The notes beneath the pieces were generated by a model. It saw nothing but the letters and a program-made list of their open reading frames with translations, made no database searches and was not told where the DNA came from. Shown piece after piece: positions 1 through 50,763 of a DNA stretch of 50,805 nt. Position 1 is the first letter of the stretch. The number at the start of each line of letters is the position of its first letter. Made by a program: the position numbers and the translations under genes. The stretch lies in the sequence record SRR31156797_3786; one strand, written 5' to 3'.

Positions 1-93
1 GAAGTGCATGGGAATCGAACCCACCTAGCAAGCTGTTCACCCGCTACACCGGATTTGAAGTCCGGGAGAGCCACCAGTGCCCTTTCCACTTCC
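1..93 (-). tRNA. selC: tRNA-Sec (anticodon UCA); last few 3' bases lie outside the window
   Basis: Minus strand reads GGAAGTGGA...CCGGA-CTTCAAA-TCCGG (anticodon TCA, plus-strand 56-58), has a long variable arm and a GGTTCGATTCC T-arm, and ends CACTTC, which pairs with the 5' acceptor strand. Confidence 0.95.
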
Positions 94-4673: not shown

Positions 4674-6103
4674 TACTTTTCCCCCTTCCATGTTCTGATA
4701 TCCACAAAATGCCCTGCAATTGCTGCAGAAGCCGCCATTATAGGGCTGACAAGATGAGTACGCCCTCCAAAGCCTTGACGTCCTTCAAAGTTACGATTGG
4801 AAGTGGAGGCGCAATGTTCGCCTTTGCCCAATTTATCATCATTCATGGCAAGGCACATGGAACAACCAGGTTCGCGCCACTCAAAACCAGCCTGCTTGAA
4901 GATTGCATCCAAACCTTCCTGCTCTGCTTGTTTCTTCACCAGACCAGATCCAGGGACGACCAGAGCCTGTTTAATGCTTGCTGCAACCTTGTGTCCTTTC
5001 ACCGCCTCTGCTGCGGCTCGGAGATCTTCAATCCTGGAATTAGTGCACGAACCAATAAAAACACGATCCAGCTTGATATCGGTTATCTTTTCTCCTGCTT
5101 TCAGCCCCATATAGTGCAAAGCATTGGTGATTCCTTCAGCCTGGGTTTCTGTCTGGGCCTTCTCTGGATCAGGAACAACACCCGTTACCCCAATCACCAT
5201 TTCAGGCGACGTGCCCCAACTCACCTGCGGTTCAATCACAGCGGCATCAATGGTGACCACATTATCAAATTCTGCATCATCGTCGGAAACCAACTGTTGC
5301 CAATAGACTTTAGCCTGTTCCCACATTTCACCCTTGGGTGCAAAAGGCTTATCTTCAACATAAGCCAAGGTCGTGTCATCGACTGCTACTAAACCGGCTC
5401 TTGCTCCAGCCTCAATAGCCATGTTGCAGACAGTCATCCGTCCCTCCATTGAAAGAGAACGAATGCTTGATCCTCCAAACTCAATGGTATAGCCTGTCCC
5501 GCCGGCTGTGCCTATGTGACCTATAATATAAAGAACCAGATCTTTAGCCGTCACCCCAGGCCCGAGCTTTCCCTCGACCTTGATTAACATATTCTTCATC
5601 TTTTTCTGAAGAAGGCATTGGGTGGCCAGAACATGCTCCACCTCGGAGGTGCCTATACCTTGAGCCAGGGAACCAAGCGCACCATGGGTAGAAGTATGCG
5701 AATCACCACAGACAATAGTCATTCCCGGCAAAGTTACCCCCTGTTCCGGGCCCATGACATGAACAATACCCTGACGTTCATCATCCATTCCAAATTCACG
5801 GATATTAAATAAACGACAGTTCTCATCAAGAGTCTGCACCTGAAGTCGTGATATGGGATCCTGAATACCATCAATTCCTGAACTTCTTTCAGCCAGTGTC
5901 GTCGGAACATTATGATCAGGAGTCGCCAGATTGGCTTCCGGGTTCCATGGTTCTCTCCCCTGCAGCCGCAACCCTTCAAAAGCCTGGGGTGATGTCACCT
6001 CGTGAAGCAGATGACGATCAATATAAATAAGCGAGGTACCGTCTGGGCGATCTTCCACCAGATGCGCCTCCCACAGTTTATCATACAAAGTTTTTCCAGC
6101 CAT
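4673..6103 (-). CDS. leuC: 3-isopropylmalate dehydratase large subunit
   Basis: [63 protein letters not shown]. Confidence 0.97.
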
Positions 6104-6199
6104 TACGCATCACCTCCGAGGGTATGATGATATTTGTCTCTTCTATCTGTTCTATTTCCTTAGGCACCTAGCATAGTGCGTTCACCATTTCGCTTACAA

Positions 6200-6487
6200 T
6201 CAGCAGCAGCCTTTTACAATCTTCCGCCCAAACAAGGTATTGATCCACTTGGCGATAATATAAGAAGCACACCCGACCCCAGGATCGACGGTTATAGCCC
6301 CCGTAGGACAATTGGTCTGACAAGCTCCACACTCCATGCAAAGATCACTATCAATTATACATGCTTTTCTTTGATCAAAGTGCAAAATCCTATGTGGGCA
6401 GACCACAACACACCCACCACAGCCAATACATTTCTCCTCTGCAAACTGCAAGGTGGAGGTTCCTTTTACATACCTGAAATTATCCAT
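6200..6487 (-). CDS. hgcB: Mercury methylation 2[4Fe-4S] ferredoxin HgcB
   Basis: CIGCGGCVVVCP and CMECGACQTNCP cluster motifs, GVGCA, C-terminal CC; directly downstream of hgcA with a GGAGG RBS. Confidence 0.95.
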   Translation of the reverse strand: MDNFRYVKGTSTLQFAEEKCIGCGGCVVVCPHRILHFDQRKACIIDSDLCMECGACQTNCPTGAITVDPGVGCASYIIAKWINTLFGRKIVKGCC

Positions 6488-6505
6488 TCAACCTCCTGCT
6501 TATTC

Positions 6506-7675
6506 TTAAGTGACAAAAGGACTTAACAACCATAAAATCAATGCCCCCGCTGCACATATGCCCTGAACTAGAAGCCCTCTTTTCATTTCGTACTCCACCC
6601 CACTTGGTGAGGTATAAGGAGTGGATCCTGTAAAATTCATTGCCAGGTAAGAACTGGCAGTAATGGACCATAACATCATGGCAGCTGTTTCCAAACCGCT
6701 AAGGGCAGTATCCCATCCCCACAGACAACACAGCCCGACCAATAGGCCTGGAAAAAGTCCTTTGACCCAAAACTGACGACCAGGTATCCACGGCAAAAAA
6801 ATGGGTACCACCAAAGCGCCGCTGATCACGGCAGCCAGTGTCATAGTCACAAAAATCGAGCCGCGATCAAACATGGCTGCACTAGAAAAAACACCCGGCC
6901 CTATCCCGGAAAGAACAAACCCGACAAACAAAATAATCAGCAATTGTTTGGCCAACAGGTAGAACTCGACTGGGACAAGAACCATTCTTTCTACCATGGT
7001 AAATGTCACCATGCGCATTGCCTCGTCAGCCTGGTTCCCGTTGGTGATAAACTCTTGCAGCGCACTTGCCCGTACCGGACCGAAAACCACTGTAAATCCA
7101 CTCTGCTTTTTCACCTTATGAGCACTTACAGCGGGGGCAGCCAATTGGGGAACGATGAGTTGTTTGTGATCGACCAACTTGTTGACTTGATAACGCTCAA
7201 GGCTCATCACTATTTCCTGGGTGGAAAATGTTTGTTTACCTGCTGCGCACCATACATTTATCCCCCTTGTATCAAGCACCAAAATCCACGCAGAAAAACC
7301 AGCCAGTTGAAAGCGCAGGGCATCAAAAGACAACTTATAATTTGCTGATACAAGTATCGGAGAAACGGGTGTCGGCGACCCCACTGCGTAAACTCCAGGA
7401 GAAATTGCGTAGGTATTGCGTATGGTTCCCAGTCGTGCCAGCACTGTTTCATATCGATCACGGATCGACGGGGTGGTCGCAGCCTGCGGTACAGAACCAA
7501 TAGACGTTGCAATAAACCCTTTTACAAAAGGCTCGATACAGTAACCAGCTCTTTGCTCAACCCCTGCCCGGGGCTCCTGTTTTGGCCCTCAGCACGGCGC
7601 CTCACTCTCTACTGACATCGGAATTACCGGTTTGGGCTGCAGCCTTTGCAAGGTTACCCCTTTTTCATCATTCAT
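6506..7675 (-). CDS. hgcA: Mercury methylation corrinoid protein HgcA, predicted selenoprotein (389 aa, Sec29 at 7589-7591)
   Basis: Cap-helix motif GINVWCAAGK, SANYKLSFD, NFTGSTPYTSPSGV and C-terminal TM helices. The frame extends beyond the ORF-track start (7444) through a single TGA to an ATG at 7675 with an AGGA RBS. Gene identity is near certain; the extended start is an inference. Confidence 0.92.
7559..7575 (-). promoter_or_regulatory. Candidate bacterial SECIS hairpin of hgcA
   Basis: AGCCCC-GGGCA-GGGGTT hairpin at +14 to +30 after the in-frame UGA; the apical loop starts with G. Confidence 0.65.
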
Positions 7676-7971
7676 ATAATTTTCCTAATCCTGTCAAGAA
7701 TAACATAGTTTCAAAAGTCCGCCCCACTCCATATTTATTGCTCCAAGCAATTAATTGCTATTTAACGATAGACGATATAAAAAATACAGCAACTCCTCTT
7801 GCTGCAAAACTGAATAACCTCCTTTTCCAACTCACTACATTTCTGCCCTGCCCCTCGTATTACACCCTCCTGACACGACCGCTGCATAGACAACGGAAAC
7901 GTCATGCTATATACTTTTATATAATATACGACCTAATTTAGACCTGTATATCCTTCATTCCAGGAGGTCAC

Positions 7972-9624
7972 ATGACAAAGATGATTACTATCGGTGATTA
8001 CCTTATCGAAAAATTGCACCAGGTTGGGGTTCGCCATATGTTTGGCATTCCCGGCGATTATGTACTCGGCTTTTACGATATGGTTGAAAAAAGTCCGGCC
8101 ATTGAAATAATCAACACCTCCGATGAACAAGGTGCAGGGTTTGCTGCAGATGCCTATGCACGTATAAGCGGTCTGGGTGCTGTTTGTGTTACTTACGGGG
8201 TAGGAGGGCTCAAGATTGCTAATACCACAGCCCAGGCATATGCTGAAAAATCTCCAGTGGTTGTTATCAGCGGCAGCCCAGGATTGGCGGAACGAGGCCG
8301 CCAGGGCCTTCTTCACCACCAGATAACAGACTTCAGTGCCCAAATTCGCGTATTTGAACAGTTCACCGTGTTCTCAACAGTTATCACCTCGCCCCAAACT
8401 GCGCAACGAGAGATAGACAGGGCCATAAGAACAGCTATAGAGTATAAGCGACCGGTATATATCGAACTGCCCAGGGATCTTGTATTTTCATCTTTTTTTC
8501 CGTATCGGGAAGAAGATATCACTGAAGAAACAAGTCTCCAGGAAGCTCTGAAAGAGTCGGTGGAGGAAGCAACAGCGCTCATCAACAAGGCAACAAAACC
8601 TGTTATCCTGGCAGGTGTTGAAATTCATCGCTTTGGCCTGCAGGAAACAGTGACGGGGCTGGCCCGGGAAAAGGGCATCCCCATTGCCGTTACCATGCTT
8701 GCCAAATCAGTCGTCCCCGACACTGAGGACTATTACCTTGGTGTATTTGAAGGCGGCAGAGAGGAAGTAACCCAATACGTTGAATCAAGTGACTGCCTGA
8801 TTATGCTGGGTACTTTTCTTACCGACCTCAACCTGGGCCTTTTCACCACCACCATTGATCCCAACAAGGCGATCCACGCCACCAGTGAGAAAATAGCCAT
8901 CCGTTACCATCGATACGAGAAGGTCGTCTTTACAGAATTTCTGTCTGCACTGCACCAGGCACCAATCACCCCCAGGACGATAGAGTCTCTACCAAAAGCA
9001 CAGGCACCCGAGCCTGTCCCCTATCCAGCACCGAAAAAGCCCATCACTGTGGCAACCCTGTTTCAGCACCTCAACGGCTTTATCCAGGAAGATACCATAG
9101 TCATTGCCGATGTAGGTGACGCCCTTTTTGGTGCCAACGATCTCTTTGTCCACAACGCCACCGATTTTCTTTCACCAGCCTACTACGCTTCGCTTGGTTT
9201 TGCGGTTCCGGGAGCACTGGGTGCACAACTTGCCAACCCGTATGCAAGACCCCTGGTTCTGGTGGGAGACGGAGCCTTTCAGATGACAGGGATGGAATTG
9301 TCTGCAATCGCCCGTTACAAGCTTAATCCCATTGTGGTGGTCCTTAATAACGACGGCTACAGTACGGAACGCCCCATGCTGGACGGTACTTTTAACGACG
9401 TCCACCCATGGGCATTCAGTAAAATACCAGATATACTTGGCTGCGGACAAGGTTTTGCAGTGCACACTGAGTATGAGCTGCAGCAGGCCCTGGAAAAGGC
9501 CCTGGCATATACCGATGGTTTTACCATTATCGATGTTAAAATAGACCGCGATGACCGCTCACCAGCCCTTGTTCGACTAACCAGCAAGCTCGCCGCCAGA
9601 GTAAAACCAGCAACTGCTCCCTGA
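7972..9624 (+). CDS. ThDP-dependent alpha-keto acid decarboxylase (indolepyruvate/pyruvate decarboxylase family)
   Basis: FGIPGDY, DEQGAGFAADAYAR, LLHH and ThDP motif GDGAFQMTG...NNDGY. Confidence 0.92.
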   Translation: MTKMITIGDYLIEKLHQVGVRHMFGIPGDYVLGFYDMVEKSPAIEIINTSDEQGAGFAADAYARISGLGAVCVTYGVGGLKIANTTAQAYAEKSPVVVISGSPGLAERGRQGLLHHQITDFSAQIRVFEQFTVFSTVITSPQTAQREIDRAIRTAIEYKRPVYIELPRDLVFSSFFPYREEDITEETSLQEALKESVEEATALINKATKPVILAGVEIHRFGLQETVTGLAREKGIPIAVTMLAKSVVPDTEDYYLGVFEGGREEVTQYVESSDCLIMLGTFLTDLNLGLFTTTIDPNKAIHATSEKIAIRYHRYEKVVFTEFLSALHQAPITPRTIESLPKAQAPEPVPYPAPKKPITVATLFQHLNGFIQEDTIVIADVGDALFGANDLFVHNATDFLSPAYYASLGFAVPGALGAQLANPYARPLVLVGDGAFQMTGMELSAIARYKLNPIVVVLNNDGYSTERPMLDGTFNDVHPWAFSKIPDILGCGQGFAVHTEYELQQALEKALAYTDGFTIIDVKIDRDDRSPALVRLTSKLAARVKPATAP

Positions 9625-9630
9625 TAAGCG

Positions 9631-10581
9631 ATGACTACTCGATCACAGGCCCTGTTTGCATCAGGTAAACTCCAGCAACGTGCCGAGCAGGCACATGAGC
9701 TCCTCAGTTGCTGCACCCTTTGTCCTCGGCAATGTAAAGTCAACCGACTCGAGGGTCAACTGGGCTTATGTCAAACCGGCGAGCATGCCCTTGTCGCAAG
9801 TTATGGTCCTCACTTCGGAGAAGAGCAGCCCCTGGTCGGGAGTAAAGGGTCTGGCACCATTTTTTTTGCCGGGTGCAGTCTCCTCTGCTGCTTTTGTCAA
9901 AACTTTGATATAAGCCATATAACCAAAGACAGCCAGCCAGTGGATGATCAAGGGCTTGCCGCCATCATGATCGAACTGCAGGAACAGGGTTGCCACAATA
10001 TCAACCTGGTCACTCCCTGTCATGTTGTCCCTCAGATTATGGGAGCACTTGTCCATGCATCAGCTAATGGGCTGCATATCCCCATTGTTTACAATTCCAG
10101 CGGGTACGATTCCCTTGAGACTGTGGCACTGCTGGACGGCGTGATTGACATCTATATGCCTGATTTCAAATTTTGGGATTCTGCAACAAGTAGTCGTTGG
10201 GCAAAAGCACCTGATTATCCTCAACGCGCCCGAGAGACAATACAGTCCATGTACCAACAGGTGGGCGACTTGCAGATAAATAAACAGGGGCTTGCAACCA
10301 CTGGGCTAATGGTGCGGCATCTGCTGATGCCGGGTAAAGAGAAGGAAACTGTAGACATACTTGCCTTTATCGCTCAGCACATCTCCCTCAATACCTATGT
10401 CAACATAATGGACCAGTATCACCCCTGCGGCAGCACAGCCCTCTTTCCCGAACTGCAGCACACTATAACCACAAAGCACTACCAGCAGGCCTTGGCTGCG
10501 GCACATTCCCAGGGACTGCACCGCCTGGACCAGCGTGATCTTTCAGACCTCATCAGAAATCTGATATTTCAGCAGAAATAA
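9631..10581 (+). CDS. Radical SAM protein, PflX-like
   Basis: CTLCPRQC, HFGEE, GSGTIFF, CSLLCCFCQN (CxxxCxxC), DIYMPDFK. Confidence 0.9.
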   Translation: MTTRSQALFASGKLQQRAEQAHELLSCCTLCPRQCKVNRLEGQLGLCQTGEHALVASYGPHFGEEQPLVGSKGSGTIFFAGCSLLCCFCQNFDISHITKDSQPVDDQGLAAIMIELQEQGCHNINLVTPCHVVPQIMGALVHASANGLHIPIVYNSSGYDSLETVALLDGVIDIYMPDFKFWDSATSSRWAKAPDYPQRARETIQSMYQQVGDLQINKQGLATTGLMVRHLLMPGKEKETVDILAFIAQHISLNTYVNIMDQYHPCGSTALFPELQHTITTKHYQQALAAAHSQGLHRLDQRDLSDLIRNLIFQQK

Positions 10582-16919: not shown

Positions 16920-17912
16920 CTATTTGAGCATGATCCCTCTTTCTTTTGCAGCATCGGCAATATGATCCACAAAGAGCTGGGCAAACTTATCATTGGACCC
17001 AAGTCCCTCCAAAACAGTCTCAACTTTGTAGCCATCGGCACTCAAAATAGATTTCCAAGAATCGCCTTCCTCACCGGCCATATCGTTGGTAGCATGGTCA
17101 CCAGCAACAATCATGAACGGCTTCAAGATAACTTTCTTGGTTTCAGCATACTTCAAGTGGCTTTGGAAATCATCCAGGCTTGGATGTCCTTCGACTACAC
17201 CGACAAAAGTTGCAACGTCTGGATAGGCTTTACGCATTTTCTGCTGCACTTCGCTGTATATTCCTGTGGACCAGTGCTCATTGCCATGGCCCATGTAGAC
17301 AAGCATTGCCCCTTCTTTTTTGGCCATTTCCGCATCAGCTGCAAGGGTTGCAACAGCTGCATCGACATCTGCATGATACTCGTAACGGTCTCCAGGCATG
17401 CCAAGGGCAGGACGTCCCATCACAATATTGTTAAATGGGCGCCATTTATTTTTCATAGTCCGGATGGAAGCTATACCATTAACGTACTGCATCAGGTCAT
17501 GAGACTGCTCCATAAAGAACATATGGGTGGGCTGAACAATGATATTTTTGTACCCTTCTTCACGTAGGTCGCCAAAGGTAGCAATGACATTTTCGACATA
17601 CAGCACTTCTTTGGGAATCCCCTGGTCAAGCCATTTTTGCGCTTCTGCCTGACGCTCTTTCCATACGGAACGGATAATATTGGAGGTAAAGGTAATGCGT
17701 ACTTCTGTACCAGGATACGCAGCTTTGACCTGGTCCACAATATTGGTAATGGATTGAACCGCACTTGGAACAGTGGTCCCAAAACTGGCCACAATGATCG
17801 CGTTCTTACTTTCCTTTGGCTGGCTCATTCCACCTGAGGCAAATGCTGCTGTAACACACAGTGACAGTGCGAAAACAGCTGTTGTCACTACAATTTGCAT
17901 GTACTTTTTCAT
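16920..17912 (-). CDS. cbiK: Sirohydrochlorin cobaltochelatase CbiK with N-terminal signal peptide (periplasmic type)
   Basis: VASFGTT, FTSNII, VQPTH, YMGHG, PFMIVAGDHATNDMAG, DSWK, LEGLG; hydrophobic leader ending AFA. Confidence 0.9.
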   Translation of the reverse strand: MKKYMQIVVTTAVFALSLCVTAAFASGGMSQPKESKNAIIVASFGTTVPSAVQSITNIVDQVKAAYPGTEVRITFTSNIIRSVWKERQAEAQKWLDQGIPKEVLYVENVIATFGDLREEGYKNIIVQPTHMFFMEQSHDLMQYVNGIASIRTMKNKWRPFNNIVMGRPALGMPGDRYEYHADVDAAVATLAADAEMAKKEGAMLVYMGHGNEHWSTGIYSEVQQKMRKAYPDVATFVGVVEGHPSLDDFQSHLKYAETKKVILKPFMIVAGDHATNDMAGEEGDSWKSILSADGYKVETVLEGLGSNDKFAQLFVDHIADAAKERGIMLK

Positions 17913-17984: not shown

Positions 17985-18042
17985 GCCCTATAAATCCACG
18001 TATCTCTATCATCTCCCTTGTCCACGGGAAAACGATCTTTTG

Positions 18043-18204
18043 TTCAGGCAGGTTTTCTGACTTTCGACTCTATCTACTCACTGCGCCTTCCCAACATACA
18101 ACATACATATCAGTGGCATTGTGCAGCTTTCGTCCTCGATTACAGCGGCGGGCCCGTCTCCGAATTACACGGAATTCCCTTTTGATCCAATGAAGGAACC
18201 TGAA
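18043..18204 (-). ncRNA. Cobalamin (B12) riboswitch
   Basis: Minus strand: TTCAGGT...AAAAGGGAATTCCGTGTAATTCGGAGACGGGCCCGCCGCTGTAA...GCCACTG...GGGAAGGC...AAGTCAGAAAACCTGCCTGAA (B12 box), upstream of cbiK. Confidence 0.95.
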
Positions 18205-18277
18205 AACAACAAACAACCTACTGAACAGGGAGTCAAAATGTCAATAAAAAACAAAATAATACCCTCTGACCCAAACA

Positions 18278-19496: not shown

Positions 19497-20279
19497 ATGC
19501 TCAAGAGCTCATCCTATAAATACATTTTTCTCTTTCTAGGGGCCACGCTCCTCCCCCTCATTGCGAGGTTCACATTCACCGCGCTGGGGGCACTCCTCCC
19601 TGCCCAAGCATACCTGCTCCCCTTTACCATAGGCGGCACCCTCGGTTATCTGCTCGGCTTTTTGCTTGATAAATACTTGAAAACTCTTGAAACGCTAAAA
19701 TGCACAAACAGTGTTCTTAAGCAGGAAATCAAAGAAAAAACGCTCAACGAAGCTAAGTATTCAGAACTCTTTAAAAAAAACCATACTATTACTCTCTTGA
19801 TAAACCCCTCAACTAGCTCCATTGTCGACGCAAATGTCGACGCAAATACGACTGCCGCTGAGTTCTATGGGTATCCAATAGAACAAATAAAAAAAATGTC
19901 TATTTCTGATATCAATGTTCTTTCCCAGGAAGAAATAAAGCATGAGATGGACAAGGCTGTTCGGGAAGGAAGGAAACAGTATTATTTTAAACACAGACTG
20001 CAATCTGGAGAGATAAGAGATGTTGAGGTTTATTCGGGATCTATTACTATCAACAACTCTGCCCTTTTGATATCTATTGTTAACGACATCACTGAATTAA
20101 AACTGCTCAAGGGAATTATCTCTATTTGCTCTCACTGTAAAAAGATCAAAGATGAGGAGGGATTCTGGAGCCAGCTTGAGCTATACATAAAAAACCACTC
20201 AGAAGCTGATTTCAGCCACGGTTTATGTCCTGATTGCGCTCAAAATCTTTATCCTGATCTTTTCACGACCAAACAATAA
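19497..20279 (+). CDS. Membrane-anchored PAS domain protein with a C-terminal Cys/His (putative Zn-binding) domain
   Basis: Two N-terminal TMs, DAN..AAEFYGY PAS signature, ICSHCKKIKD...FSHGLCPDC. Confidence 0.82.
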   Translation: MLKSSSYKYIFLFLGATLLPLIARFTFTALGALLPAQAYLLPFTIGGTLGYLLGFLLDKYLKTLETLKCTNSVLKQEIKEKTLNEAKYSELFKKNHTITLLINPSTSSIVDANVDANTTAAEFYGYPIEQIKKMSISDINVLSQEEIKHEMDKAVREGRKQYYFKHRLQSGEIRDVEVYSGSITINNSALLISIVNDITELKLLKGIISICSHCKKIKDEEGFWSQLELYIKNHSEADFSHGLCPDCAQNLYPDLFTTKQ

Positions 20280-26579: not shown

Positions 26580-27161
26580 TTATAATTCTTTATAGTATCG
26601 GGTACCGCTGCAACCACGACAAAGGGTTCTGCCATCCCGGACGACTTCACGACAATCCTGTACCCAGTCACCGCACTCCTCGCACTGCACTCTGCGCATC
26701 GGCCTTCCAGGCATCTCGCACTCTTTTAATGTCACCTCGACATCCTGAAAAGAAAATAATTCATTAAGGGGCATTACCCTGTATGCATCCAGTTGGCGCT
26801 GATATTTATCCACGGTCTGCGGAGCATACTTCTTGGAGAGTTCCCTTGATTCTTCCCTGGCTGTTACCCGTACTGCCTTCCCAGTATCCAGGTTGACAAA
26901 AGTGGCTGCCATAACCCCATGATCGATCCAGCGCATTGACCGTTTTCCCAGGCTGCATCCGGTTACAGACTGGATGGCATCAGTTGCGCAACGGTCAATC
27001 TCGACCAATACATAGGTCTTTTTCCGATCTTTTCCTTTTGGATCATCAATTCCTATCCGCCCCAGCCCCTCCATTGCCATTCGAACCCCGATAACCTGAC
27101 CAGCACAAATATGGCCATGAATTCTGGTTGAGACCTCAAGTAAATCCTCAAATGACTCCAT
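26580..27161 (-). CDS. FmdE-family protein with C-terminal zinc finger
   Basis: HGHICAGQVIGVRM, EIDRCATDAIQSVTGCSLGK, CEECG...CRGC. Confidence 0.9.
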   Translation of the reverse strand: MESFEDLLEVSTRIHGHICAGQVIGVRMAMEGLGRIGIDDPKGKDRKKTYVLVEIDRCATDAIQSVTGCSLGKRSMRWIDHGVMAATFVNLDTGKAVRVTAREESRELSKKYAPQTVDKYQRQLDAYRVMPLNELFSFQDVEVTLKECEMPGRPMRRVQCEECGDWVQDCREVVRDGRTLCRGCSGTRYYKEL

Positions 27162-27258: not shown

Positions 27259-28332
27259 TCAAATAGCAGCTGTCCGCTTATCTGGAATGGATAAAGGCTG
27301 CCACTGGGCAATCATTTCGAACAAGTCTTTGCAAAAACCGCACTTTTCGCAACGCCCGTCGCACTGTGAGAGCATATTTGCAAAATCAAAGGAGAGTGAG
27401 CTGTTATCGATATACAACTTATCGGCAAGCCAATTGGTGGCATCAAGAAGATCAAGTAGGTTGCCGTCGTATTTGCGATTGCTGTAGGCCTTGAACACTC
27501 GACTCAGAAAAGCCGGTCCCAGAGAGCGGCCGCATAATTTGACGGTATCGATATGGTAGTAATAAAGGTCTATATCTTCGGGCCGGATAAAAGGGGAAAG
27601 AATAATTCGGTGGGGTTCCTTGTATAGTAAATCCATACATCCAAGATTACCCTTAAAGCCAAGACTGCTTTTGTATCCCTTGATATTAGCCAAAGCGATG
27701 TAGGAGTCGTGGGACAGCTTAAATGGACAGTAGGACAGACATCCTTCGTTGGCAAGTACCTCCAGCCGTAGGTGAGGAAAATGGGTATGGATTTTAAGAG
27801 CTACTTTGGCCAAAGAATCCAAATCCCTATTCAAGGATCGGTCTAGGACAATTTTCTGTGGTTTTTTGAAGTGGGTTAACTCAATATATGCTAATTGGGC
27901 GTCAATCTTGCCGTACGAATCCAACATAGTATTCACTCCAGGAACTGCCTCCAACGAAGAAGCGATATCGGGTGCTTCCTCGGAGAGGTACTGCAGTAAA
28001 TAGTGGTCGCAATAGATGATACCGTTAATCAAGTCATGCTCCAGGTAGTCCTGGAGCGTATTGATAATGCATTGCACATTCTCCTTGTCGCTCAGCAGCT
28101 CGGGAGAATAAAACCGGCTGTTCATCAAGGCATACTTCTTTACGCCCTTCAGACGACCAAGCTGTTCAAGATAATTTTCACTACTTTGCAGATCCTCTAG
28201 TAAAATGCGGTTGTCTAAACGTAAATCTGGAAGAAGACTGAAATGCACGCAGTCGAGTTCATCTGCATGTTCTGCCAGAAGCTCTACATACGATGGATCC
28301 GGAAGAAATGGTACATCAAATAACGGTTTCAT
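27259..28332 (-). CDS. U32-peptidase-like Fe-S protein
   Basis: LDRSLNRD, NEGCLSYCPFK, FIRPED, KLCGR, C-terminal CDGRCEKCGFC; overlaps the upstream U32 gene. Confidence 0.7.
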   Translation of the reverse strand: MKPLFDVPFLPDPSYVELLAEHADELDCVHFSLLPDLRLDNRILLEDLQSSENYLEQLGRLKGVKKYALMNSRFYSPELLSDKENVQCIINTLQDYLEHDLINGIIYCDHYLLQYLSEEAPDIASSLEAVPGVNTMLDSYGKIDAQLAYIELTHFKKPQKIVLDRSLNRDLDSLAKVALKIHTHFPHLRLEVLANEGCLSYCPFKLSHDSYIALANIKGYKSSLGFKGNLGCMDLLYKEPHRIILSPFIRPEDIDLYYYHIDTVKLCGRSLGPAFLSRVFKAYSNRKYDGNLLDLLDATNWLADKLYIDNSSLSFDFANMLSQCDGRCEKCGFCKDLFEMIAQWQPLSIPDKRTAAI

Positions 28333-29588
28333 ATTGGTGCTATATATTTCCTAATGATACTATTTAGTTGTGCTGAAAGGAGCTGCGGTTCAGTGTGTAA
28401 TTCAACCCTGTTTCCTGGGTTTGCCCGGACCATATCCTCACCATCCTTATTGACCATTTTTACCACCTGAGCTGTCACAGGCTCAATACTGTCAGGGCCA
28501 AGGTATTCAACCGTATCACCGCTCTCTAAAACATTGCGGGTTTCAATGGTCAAAGGAGCAATAGAACGTACAATGCCAACCGGTGCGTAACCTTGCGCTA
28601 ATCGCATTGTATCATAAAGCATATCACCAGATGAAGGGTCACTCTCAAAAAAATTCTGAGAGTGACCACGAGTACCGATCTTCTTCATTTCATTATGAAA
28701 AACAGTCGGCAACTCGATATCATGTAGGTCTACGCCTGAAAAAAGTTTTTCCTTGATCAGATCCAATGCCGTTCGATAGAGCCTGACAACACTGCCCACA
28801 TACCCCATAGATTTCATCCGCCCTTCAATTTTAATTGAATCGGCACCCACTGCTATAAGCTTTGGTAAATGAGGCAACAGACAAAGATCACGTGCATTAA
28901 AGATATAGGTGCCGCGCTCATCCTCTTCAACAGGATAGTATTGACCTGGCCGTTTTTCCTCTACCAGCTTATAGGAGTAGCGACATGGTTGGGAACAATC
29001 CCCTTTATTTGCGTCTCTACCAGTCATATAGTTACTAAGCATGCATCGCCCGGAATAGGAAATACACAGTGCCCCGTGAACAAAAATTTCCAATTCTACA
29101 TCAGTTGCCTGCCGTATTTCCTGCATTTCACCGTATCCCATTTCACGTGCCAGGTTTATCCTTGACACCCCCTGCTTACTCCAGAAGGCAGCACTGGCAC
29201 CATTGGTTACATTTGCTTGAGTGGAAAGATGGACAGGCAAAGAAGGTACTGTTTGCTGGGCAAGGGAAAAGACCCCTGGGTCAGCAACAATAATACCATC
29301 AACCCCATGTGACTGTAATAATTCAAGGTACGCAGGAAGTCCTTCCATATCCCTGTTATGGGCAAATATATTGACCGTTACATATACTTTCACCCCATGC
29401 TGGTGAGCATACTCGACAGCCCGAGCAATGCCTGCATCATCAAAATTGGCAGCCCTTGCACGAAGACTGAACTGCTTACCGCCAAGATAAACAGCATCCG
29501 CACCATAATGCACAGCTGTGACCAATTTTTCAAAACTGCCTGCCGGTGCTAGCAGCTCAGGAATTTTGTGTACCTGTGTGTTATCCAT
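28329..29588 (-). CDS. U32-family protein, TrhP-like (tRNA hydroxylation)
   Basis: PELLAPAG, GADAVYLG, HLSTQAN, HGALCISYSGRC, CSQPCR, KIEGRMKS. Confidence 0.92.
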   Translation of the reverse strand: MDNTQVHKIPELLAPAGSFEKLVTAVHYGADAVYLGGKQFSLRARAANFDDAGIARAVEYAHQHGVKVYVTVNIFAHNRDMEGLPAYLELLQSHGVDGIIVADPGVFSLAQQTVPSLPVHLSTQANVTNGASAAFWSKQGVSRINLAREMGYGEMQEIRQATDVELEIFVHGALCISYSGRCMLSNYMTGRDANKGDCSQPCRYSYKLVEEKRPGQYYPVEEDERGTYIFNARDLCLLPHLPKLIAVGADSIKIEGRMKSMGYVGSVVRLYRTALDLIKEKLFSGVDLHDIELPTVFHNEMKKIGTRGHSQNFFESDPSSGDMLYDTMRLAQGYAPVGIVRSIAPLTIETRNVLESGDTVEYLGPDSIEPVTAQVVKMVNKDGEDMVRANPGNRVELHTEPQLLSAQLNSIIRKYIAPI

Positions 29589-37095: not shown

Positions 37096-37791
37096 TCAAT
37101 CTTCTGCACATTCGCAGGGAAGTGAAGGAATTACAAAATACAGGTTGGTACAGGCATCTGCTGCCGGCTGCATGCTAAGCGTCCCCTCCACCTTGGTAAT
37201 GGCTGCTTGCAATATTTTAGATTCCTCGACAAGAACAGCCTTGGAAAGTTCATAGTTTACCCTTACCGACTTACCTTCCATGGAGGTACGAATTGCCAGA
37301 CTGCTGCCGCTGGCAAGCTGGTCCAGGCAAAGCTCAAAAATGCGGTAAAAAATGTGTTGGATCAATGAAGGATCATTGCGTACTGAGATTATATCCTTTC
37401 CAGGGTGTACCTCGAAACTGACCTGTTTTAACCGAGAAAACCGGCAAAGAAATGCATACTCTTCCAACAAAAGATCATTGACGCTCAATATCGTATAGGC
37501 GACATCGGGCCTGTGAGCCATTCCACTGAGATGATGGAGCATATCCGCAGCAATAACGATCCGGCGCTCAATGGATGCAATTGCCTTTTGCAGCCGTTCG
37601 GTGGTTGTGTCATCGGCATGCATCTCGGAAAACTCTATAAAATCACTTATCAGCCCATTGGATTCTCGAATAATGCCAAGATGATTTTTCATATCGTGGG
37701 AAAACCCCGCCATCAGCCGCCCAAACGTCTGAATCTGTTCATGGCGGAGAGCATTTTCTGTCGCCCCGTCAGTTATCATGGTTGAGTTCAC
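37096..37791 (-). CDS. Sensor-less histidine-kinase-like protein (HisKA plus degenerate HATPase)
   Basis: FGRLMAGFSHDMKNHL H-box; no recognisable N, G1 or G2 boxes. Confidence 0.7.
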   Translation of the reverse strand: MNSTMITDGATENALRHEQIQTFGRLMAGFSHDMKNHLGIIRESNGLISDFIEFSEMHADDTTTERLQKAIASIERRIVIAADMLHHLSGMAHRPDVAYTILSVNDLLLEEYAFLCRFSRLKQVSFEVHPGKDIISVRNDPSLIQHIFYRIFELCLDQLASGSSLAIRTSMEGKSVRVNYELSKAVLVEESKILQAAITKVEGTLSMQPAADACTNLYFVIPSLPCECAED

Positions 37792-49145: not shown

Positions 49146-49250
49146 ATACTATTAGGCAGCCAACAAAAAAGCTTCTCTTTCATGAGTTGATGTAGAGTAC
49201 CTTGATTGTCGCACACAATCGGAACCCTCAACACAAAAGGAGAAGCTGTT

Positions 49251-50540
49251 ATGAAGATTACGCAAACTGCCTTGAAAATCAACCTCAATAATGTTGTCGA
49301 CATAGCTGTGGATGTCCACCGGGACACCCTTTGCTTTTTCTTTGTCATTGAGGGGAAAGAGTTTTCCGATATTTGTAGCAACCGAACACAGGTAATCGAC
49401 ACACGGCTGAAGCAGTATCTTGCTATCTCTCGGGATCATGGCCGTGATAATTTGCGAGTCATCTGTGAGCCCACCGGGCAATACCAAAACAAGCTCATGC
49501 GAACGGCAAGGCGGCTTGGCTGTTTTACCAACTTTGTTAATGCGGAATCCGTGGCGAAATTTCGTGTTGTCGAAAGCAATGACAGTAATAAAACGGATAC
49601 CAAGGACCCACGAGTTATTGCAACCTTGGGCAAGCTGAACAAGGTGATCAAGTTCAGGCATCTTCGACAGGAGTATTTGATGCTCCGAAAACTGCATAAA
49701 ATCTATGATGAGTGTGACGTTACACTCTCCAGTCTTCGTTGCCGTGTGAACAGCCTGTTGGTGGAGCTCTTCTGTGACTACTCTTTTCAAAAAGACTTTT
49801 TGTACAGTAATTCCGGTCTGGCCTTGGTCGAGCAATACGGCTGCAACCCTTACCAAATCGTTGAAGACGGCTACACCGTTTTTTGCCGGAAAATGAGGAA
49901 AAGTGCACCGCGAATAAGGTCCAGCAGTCTTGAACGACTGTGGTTCGATGCCTCTAGCTCTGTCCTGAACGAGATGCCGAAAGGGTATATCCGTATCCTT
50001 GAAGAGCACCTCTATGCATATCTTGATGATTACTATAGCGTGTTGAACCGAAAGGAAAAAATCACCAAGGAGATGGAGGGGATTCTCGATGCTTTGCGGC
50101 AGGATGATCCCTTGATCCCACCACCGACACCGCAGCTTATCTCTGAAAAGAACCTGGCGAGATTGCTTGCCGAAACTGGGCCGTTGGGTGACTTTGCCAA
50201 TTGGCGTAAGCTGATGCGGTACGCAGGGTTTAACCTTAGAATGCGCCAAAGCGGCACTTTCCAGGGGCAAAACAAGATTAGTAAAAAAGGGCGAAGGCTG
50301 CTGCGAAAGGTCCTGCAGGCGATAGCGCTGCCTCTTGTGAGAAAAGGAAAGCTCTATGGTGACTATTACCATACCAAAAAAGACCAAATGAATATGCCCG
50401 GAACTAAGGCGATGACTATTGTTGCCCGTCATCTGTTGCGTAAAATATATGGCTGGTGCCGATCCGGTACGGAGTTTAATGAACAACGTTTTTTTACCTG
50501 TAAAAGCAGGCATGAGAAAATGATTGCTAAGGCAGCTTAG
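49251..50540 (+). CDS. IS110-family transposase/recombinase
   Basis: IAVDVH (D), CEPTG (E), KTDTKD (DD), RQSG catalytic Ser, ISKKGRRLLRK; ATG at 49251 with AAGGAG RBS. Confidence 0.95.
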   Translation: MKITQTALKINLNNVVDIAVDVHRDTLCFFFVIEGKEFSDICSNRTQVIDTRLKQYLAISRDHGRDNLRVICEPTGQYQNKLMRTARRLGCFTNFVNAESVAKFRVVESNDSNKTDTKDPRVIATLGKLNKVIKFRHLRQEYLMLRKLHKIYDECDVTLSSLRCRVNSLLVELFCDYSFQKDFLYSNSGLALVEQYGCNPYQIVEDGYTVFCRKMRKSAPRIRSSSLERLWFDASSSVLNEMPKGYIRILEEHLYAYLDDYYSVLNRKEKITKEMEGILDALRQDDPLIPPPTPQLISEKNLARLLAETGPLGDFANWRKLMRYAGFNLRMRQSGTFQGQNKISKKGRRLLRKVLQAIALPLVRKGKLYGDYYHTKKDQMNMPGTKAMTIVARHLLRKIYGWCRSGTEFNEQRFFTCKSRHEKMIAKAA

Positions 50541-50570
50541 CAGTGAAGAATAAGTAAGAAAAAAAGAAGT

Positions 50571-50763
50571 AAGTCCGGTGAACCCTGGTCCGAAGATGAC
50601 CGCCAGTCGTTTGTGATCCTTGATGGAATCATCAGTGAAATAATCCGTCACTCGGATCAGGTGTTCCCGACATGGCCGATAAAGTATGGATGTCCCGCTC
50701 CCTAATTGGGCCAGGACCGAAGCTTGGTATGATTGCCAGTCGTGAACGGATGCCATTGGACTT
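50571..50763 (+). ncRNA. Candidate bridge/seek RNA in the IS 3' non-coding region
   Basis: Closing helix AAGTCCGGTG/CATTGGACTT; inner helices CCTGGTCC/GGGCCAGG, TGATCC/GGATCA, GACAT/ATGTC. Confidence 0.6.

Follow-up and report, generated by a model that had tools for sequence, protein, structure and literature searches.

In a stretch of 50,805 nt of DNA from sequence record SRR31156797_3786 (the whole of which is called the window below), the hgcA gene, read on the minus strand, very probably codes for a selenoprotein of 389 amino acids (aa), in which an in-frame TGA is decoded as selenocysteine (Sec). HgcA makes methylmercury, a neurotoxin accumulating in food webs, and it forms a textbook binding pair with HgcB. 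An earlier note on this DNA, made from its letters alone, had proposed a HgcA of this length with a vicinal Cys-Sec pair. The proposal is supported by the alignment of TGA and Cys codons among relatives, the conservation of the coding sequence, a hairpin downstream of the TGA, a ribosome binding site (RBS) and a tRNA-Sec gene, selC (Table 1).

The sequence and its translation with TGA taken as Sec (U) reproduced letter for letter the peptide by which the frame had been said to extend 77 codons upstream of the start given by standard open reading frame (ORF) calling. Besides the terminal stop at 6508-6506, the only in-frame stop after the ATG at 7675 was the TGA at 7591-7589, located, as had been described, directly after a Cys codon (TGC, 7594-7592). 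The APCUGP motif thereby comprises residues 26-31 of the extended protein. Because the frame is stopped upstream by a TAG at 7687-7685, the ATG at 7675 is the first possible start, and the RBS attributed to this ATG was found as AGGA at 7686-7683. A second in-frame ATG forms codon 20 (7618-7616) and the bases just upstream of it contain no AGGA-like site. The called GTG at 7444 is codon 78 of 389, in agreement with the claim that standard gene callers truncate HgcA. All 48 codons of the window between the TGA and this GTG were checked and no ATG, GTG or TTG was present among them.

Codon and protein conservation around the TGA

To compare the codon at the Sec site, relatives were taken from a scan at one genome per species, which gave 600 pattern matches, 564 of them encoding a relative. 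The 80 best loci, which came mostly from Desulfobulbales and other Desulfobacterota, were retained. The comparison set consisted of 77 of these loci and the window; L001 and L078 were left out as too short upstream and L059 as lacking a match to the cap-helix motif. L001 is the nearest locus, 89% identical over residues 109-388, and it begins at residue 109. The codon 111 positions upstream of the cap-helix motif was taken as the site codon in each locus, and because this distance to the cap helix is constant, the comparison was free of gaps.

Of the 78 site codons, 46 were TGA (the window's own and those of 45 loci), 27 were TGC and 5 were TGT, and no other codon, TAA and TAG included, occurred. 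The codon before the site encoded Cys in every sequence. The TGA thus never varied to TAA or TAG, a change that the earlier note had named as speaking against Sec, and each of the 78 sequences carried either TGA or a Cys codon. In each of the 45 TGA loci a start codon lies in frame at a distance of 26-123 codons upstream and a single stop interrupts the frame, the proteins measuring 385-486 aa when counted from the first possible start. The frame of the Cys-form homologues was open continuously through the site.

The conservation of the extension, put forward earlier as a test of the proposal, was apparent over the 48 codons past the site, where frame 0 showed a mean pairwise identity of 0.50 and no stops in the 78 sequences; the other two frames over the same codons had an identity of 0.24 and contained 63 and 153 stops. 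Within the first 16 codons past the TGA, the 46 TGA forms had entropies of 0.53 bits (codon position 1), 0.32 bits (position 2) and 1.33 bits (position 3), which is the signature of purifying selection acting on the protein. The only candidate starts within the 48 codons of most relatives were GTG codons for conserved valines.

In one locus, L046, the Sec site of a Cys-form hgcA is TGC, and a different in-frame TGA is located 38 codons before the cap helix, inside the conserved domain. The position of this extra TGA is not Cys in the other sequences, and L046 probably represents a broken gene or an assembly error.

With 401.4 bits (cut-off 275), the extended protein matched the NCBIfam profile NF040863 (HgcA_corrinoid), its residues 62-387 being aligned to positions 1-324 of the 325 in the profile. 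The match opens 16 residues ahead of the called GTG, at residue 62. Pfam detected only the CdhD-like corrinoid domain in the extended HgcA. The cap-helix motif N(V/I)WCA(A/G)GK with its Cys ligand, characteristic of HgcA, was present, and residues N140, V141, W142, C143, G146 and K147 were invariant in an alignment of 39 sequences.

The input alignment for AlphaFold2 had 39 rows, 11 of them translated with TGA as U and 28 being Cys forms, and the HgcA model obtained had a mean predicted local distance difference test score (pLDDT) of 89.8 and a predicted template modelling score (pTM) of 0.85. The model contains strands at residues 51-57 and 60-65 and a helix at residues 71-82, with a block-mean pLDDT of 95-96 over residues 51-80. 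A start at the called residue 78 would cut this helix and lose the beta-hairpin. The pLDDT was 45 for residues 1-10 and 61 for residues 21-30, which hold the CU pair, and the latter value places the Cys-Sec pair on a flexible arm. Five C-terminal helices, taken as transmembrane on the basis of the model, were located at residues 227-255, 265-296, 307-320, 327-349 and 357-388. The top structural matches of the model were 9a0b, a HgcAB model computed in 2020, and the large subunits of the corrinoid iron-sulfur protein (CFeSP), with no experimental HgcA structure among the structural matches.

These data bear on the possibility that the TGA is a true stop, with HgcA starting at the GTG at 7444 and the upstream frame being at most a separate leader ORF of 28 codons. 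Such a gene model is the one given by standard ORF calling, and the hairpin past the TGA, taken as a single sequence, is within chance (see below). However, the 48 codons past the TGA are kept as protein in frame and free of stops, the third positions wobble in the first 16 of them among the TGA forms, and the NF040863 profile opens well upstream of the GTG. Moreover, the GTG falls inside a confidently modelled helix, the beta-hairpin would be lost without the upstream part, and the Cys-form homologues are open through the same position. Initiation downstream of the TGA, the counter-case raised in the earlier note, found no usable start codon before the folded conserved protein begins, as judged from the sequence, the profile and the model. 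A true stop at this position is considered highly improbable.

Hairpin and selenocysteine machinery

The G-loop hairpin described earlier as a putative selenocysteine insertion sequence (SECIS) was found with the letters ascribed to it, spanning +14 to +30 relative to the UGA. The comparison of hairpins among relatives rests on their detection in each sequence separately. Stems of 4 bp or longer within +10 to +41 were detected in all 46 TGA forms, and the loop began at +21 to +23 in 39 of them. The stems of the TGA forms vary in sequence and include CCCC/GGGG, CCAC/GTGG (six loci) and CCGAGGCC/GGCCTCGG (L034); the loop is GGGCA in the window and GGTCC in most relatives. Among the Cys forms, 13 of 32 had no such stem and the other 19 had stems at scattered positions. 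The mean minimum free energy (MFE) of the +12 to +41 segment was -10.5 kcal/mol for the TGA forms vs. -5.35 kcal/mol for the Cys forms (one-sided Mann-Whitney p = 1.8e-11, uncorrected for kinship).

The hairpin lies in the codons for (E/D)-P-R-(S/A)-G-V, which fits the difference in the peptide after the site between the two forms, this being GPKxEPRSG in TGA forms and GPPAGPPSS in Cys forms. The recoding of the UGA in E. coli fdhF is SelB-dependent, with a SECIS hairpin located just 3' of the UGA. The hairpin in the window resembles that element in being short and G+C-rich, in its position ~14 nt past the UGA and in the G residues at the start of its loop, and it may likewise be bound by SelB. 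The GGUC-type loop found in many relatives can also be likened to the fdhF SECIS.

The selC gene, reported earlier to lie in the same window as hgcA, was identified at 1-93 (Rfam RF01852, 64 bits) and has the anticodon loop CUUCAAA. A selB gene above the cut-off was found in all 5 genomes of relatives that were searched vs. 2 of 14 control genomes.

The UGA might also be read through without Sec, by near-cognate insertion of Trp or Cys or by a low-level leak, and the residue inserted is not tellable from the sequence alone. Readthrough of this kind is nevertheless given very little chance in view of the tRNA-Sec gene in the window, the hairpin at SECIS distance that is kept only in TGA forms, the selB genes of the relatives, and the alternation of TGA solely with Cys codons, the classic Sec/Cys pair. 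In addition, a rare leak would be a poor design for an essential N-terminal domain, and yet 45 further loci have retained the TGA. That the TGA arose from an error in sequencing or assembly, or from a recent mutation of TGC that inactivated the gene and left a pseudogene, can practically be dismissed: TGA and TGC are one base apart, but the same codon is TGA in the 45 other loci from separate assemblies, an independently assembled contig of run X1, possibly the source sample, shows no difference over 7300-7800 at a word depth of 28, and the gene is otherwise intact, with a score far beyond the HgcA cut-off.

Several results weigh against the decoding of this TGA as Sec. An equally good hairpin at +10 to +41 followed 96 of the 1896 TGA triplets in the window (5.1%), and the fold of a 71-nt single sequence had a z-score of 0.71, being equalled or surpassed by 150 of 200 shuffles. 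RNAalifold run on the 46 TGA-form segments gave no useful consensus hairpin. The named hairpin had 74.6% paired cells over the alignment of TGA forms, and its covariation (0.113) was no better than that with the partners slid by -1 and +1 (0.113 and 0.115, respectively); covariation in fixed columns is weak because the register slips within G/C runs. ARAGORN reported no tRNA anywhere in the window, missing the tRNA-Sec at the cut edge. A protein-database search with residues 1-80 returned 29 candidates, none of them with E <= 0.001, which probably reflects the word-seed method and a poorly conserved arm that is truncated in databases. The literature searched contained no experimental demonstration of Sec insertion for this gene or for any HgcA. 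Recombinant ND132 HgcAB in E. coli lysate is reported to methylate Hg with or without an N-terminal His tag (PMC11588087); had the old annotated start been used in this construct, the arm would not be strictly required for activity in vitro.

A further point comes from a quick tree, constructed with L046, L001, L078 and L059 left out, in which a single clade (Shimodaira-Hasegawa-like approximate likelihood ratio test support of 96) held 44 of the 46 TGA forms. The contrast between the hairpins of Sec and Cys forms rests on few independent events because of this clustering. The two remaining TGA forms, L034 (Desulfovibrio-like, TGA at locus position 2043) and L060 (Desulfobacterium-like, TGA at locus position 2034), were placed among Cys forms. 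The tree requires at least 2-3 Sec/Cys switches, and the placement of L034 and L060 suggests repeated switching. Both loci carry a hairpin of their own sequence, unlike that of the main TGA clade, and these two hairpins are the best independent support for the element. It is the comparative evidence, and not the single hairpin, that lifts the case for the TGA above chance.

Proposed role and published HgcA selenoproteins

If the TGA is decoded as Sec, translation would start at the ATG at 7675 or, less likely, at the ATG at 7618. The UGA at 7591-7589 would then be decoded by Sec-tRNA(Sec) produced from selC (window positions 1-93) and delivered by SelB, which the mRNA hairpin at 7575-7559 is expected to recruit. 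The first ~40 residues of HgcA would constitute a flexible arm with the vicinal Cys28-Sec29 in PCUGP, and residues ~43-82 are predicted to pack onto the corrinoid-binding domain as the beta-hairpin and helix, with the five transmembrane helices following. The most likely role of the Cys-Sec pair is to capture Hg(II) and pass it to the methyl-corrinoid under Cys143; alternatively, the pair might exchange Hg(II) with the C-terminal Cys94-Cys95 of HgcB. The ideas of the earlier note that this pair binds Hg(II) and that methylation is tied to the supply of selenium are plausible.

Since the 48 codons contain no start codon and the GTG cuts a helix, failed Sec insertion would give a 28-residue peptide and no working methylase. 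It is possible, although we hold it to be somewhat less probable than the contrary, that HgcA synthesis in TGA-form organisms is strictly selenium-dependent. If it is, selenium supply would gate methylmercury production in Desulfobulbales-type methylators with the TGA form and not in methylators with the Cys form. Standard calling drops 77 codons of HgcA, comprising the probable metal-binding Cys-Sec pair and part of the folded domain. The truncation bears on surveys of hgcA, on the design of primers and hidden Markov models and on recombinant constructs made from the old start.

The biology of selenoprotein HgcA is already published and built into NCBI annotation models. The caveat in the earlier note that CU-containing extensions might have been reported before was justified, as Haft and Gwadz (bioRxiv 10.1101/2022.07.06.499078) describe the same PCUGP extension for most HgcA proteins. 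According to this preprint, 20 of 20 HgcA genes have a single UGA, an invariant PCUGP and a product of 363-400 aa, all species of these genes have Sec machinery, and the Prokaryotic Genome Annotation Pipeline (PGAP) now carries reference data for these selenoproteins. Both PNAS 2024 (PMC11588087) and a 2026 review in Applied and Environmental Microbiology (PMC13188914) cite a journal version (J Bacteriol 2023), the review giving the motifs as CU for HgcA and GVGU for HgcB. The GVGU selenoprotein form is a minority of HgcB proteins (bioRxiv 10.1101/2022.07.06.499078, PMC13188914).

The gene in the window has in common with the published ones a UGA located directly after a Cys codon and upstream of the formerly called start, as well as an adjacent hgcB. 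The extension of ND132 given in the preprint (...DAPCUGPRPDPRAGV...) closely resembles that in the window (...EAPCUGPKQEPRAGV...), and the 389 aa of the product fall inside the published range. No difference of substance from the HgcA selenoproteins described in these sources was noted, and the window represents a further example, from a Desulfobulbales-like organism. What this case adds is a confirmed example, the position of the hairpin and its variants, and the Sec/Cys distribution in 78 Desulfobacterota-type genes. A SECIS of HgcA is not described in the main text of the preprint, where SECIS elements appear only in the methods and for SaoC; the preprint also states that a public SECIS server failed on the new selenoproteins of its authors (bioRxiv 10.1101/2022.07.06.499078). 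HgcA is likened through the listing in the same preprint to SaoL, SaoB, SaoC and a MerT subgroup, CU-motif selenoproteins of unrelated folds that are connected with the handling of mercury or organometals and for which a vicinal Cys-Sec is proposed as a soft-metal ligand.

HgcA shares the corrinoid-binding domain (residues 87-211, E = 1.5e-10, and fold) with the large subunit of CFeSP (gamma subunit, AcsC; PDB 2h9a, 2ycl, 4c1n and 4djd). Unlike CFeSP, it possesses a membrane domain of five helices and a Cys ligand supplied by the cap helix. The N-terminal [4Fe-4S] domain of CFeSP is absent in HgcA, with the Cys-Sec arm in its place.

Feature coordinates and neighbourhood of hgcA

Table 1. Features of the hgcA locus and of the selenocysteine machinery in the window.
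Feature	Positions	Strand	Basis
Full-length hgcA frame, 389 codons and stop, one in-frame TGA (U29)	6506-7675	-	Sequence and translation with TGA as U
ATG, likeliest start codon	7673-7675	-	First start past the in-frame TAG at 7685-7687
AGGA, Shine-Dalgarno-like, 7-nt spacer to the ATG	7683-7686	-	Direct reading of the sequence
TGC, Cys28 codon	7592-7594	-	Cys invariant across all homologues examined
TGA, predicted Sec29	7589-7591	-	Codon comparison across 78 sequences
48 conserved codons from the TGA to the called GTG, encoding the beta-hairpin and the first half of the helix; no start codon	7445-7588	-	Codon statistics and AlphaFold2 model
GTG taken as start by standard ORF calling; codon 78, internal Val in helix 71-82	7442-7444	-	ORF calling and model
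SECIS-like hairpin, AGCCCC (7575-7570), loop GGGCA (7569-7565), GGGGTT (7564-7559); +14 to +30 after the UGA	7559-7575	-	Sequence; hairpin detection per sequence
Cap-helix motif NVWCAAGK, residues 140-147; Cys143 putative corrinoid ligand	7235-7258	-	Translation; coordinates computed from the ATG at 7675
hgcB, 95-aa ferredoxin with two [4Fe-4S], all-Cys form (Cys73, Cys94, Cys95)	6200-6487	-	NCBIfam NF040864, 114.2 bits, cut-off 99
selC (tRNA-Sec, anticodon UCA), 3' end cut by the window edge	1-93	-	Rfam RF01852, 64 bits, gathering score 47, model positions 1-90 of 91

The hgcB gene adjoins hgcA downstream and its product reads GVGC at residue 73 and ends with ...KGCC. The leuC and leuD genes come next after hgcB, and a gene encoding an indolepyruvate/phenylpyruvate decarboxylase-like protein diverges upstream of hgcA. 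The scan of positions 6000-8100 revealed 5 promoter-like sites (3.2 +/- 1.7 expected) and 5 terminator-like sites (2.3 +/- 1.4 expected), neither number being above that in shuffled sequences. No RNA run was listed as covering positions 6200-7950, and run X2 (share of words 0.09) yielded no sequence over 7300-7800. A terminator-like hairpin with a T run separates the hgcA start from a weak promoter-like site (7785-7806 and 7921-7950, both on the minus strand); the hairpin might belong to a leader or attenuator or else mark where an undetected small gene ends.

A gene for a CbiK cobalt chelatase (16920-17912, minus strand; PF06180, E = 7.9e-70) is located ~10 kb from hgcA, with a cobalamin riboswitch upstream of it (RF00174, 108.5 bits; 18030-18218, minus strand). 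Five ORFs of 231-534 aa had no Pfam match at E <= 1e-8, namely those at 9631-10581 (+), 19497-20279 (+), 27259-28332 (-), 37096-37791 (-) and 49152-50756 (-), the first of which also had no NCBIfam match at 1e-10. The ORF at 27259-28332 and a U32 peptidase-family gene (28329-29588) adjoin a gene encoding an FmdE-domain protein (26580-27161, minus strand; PF02663, E = 4.1e-33).

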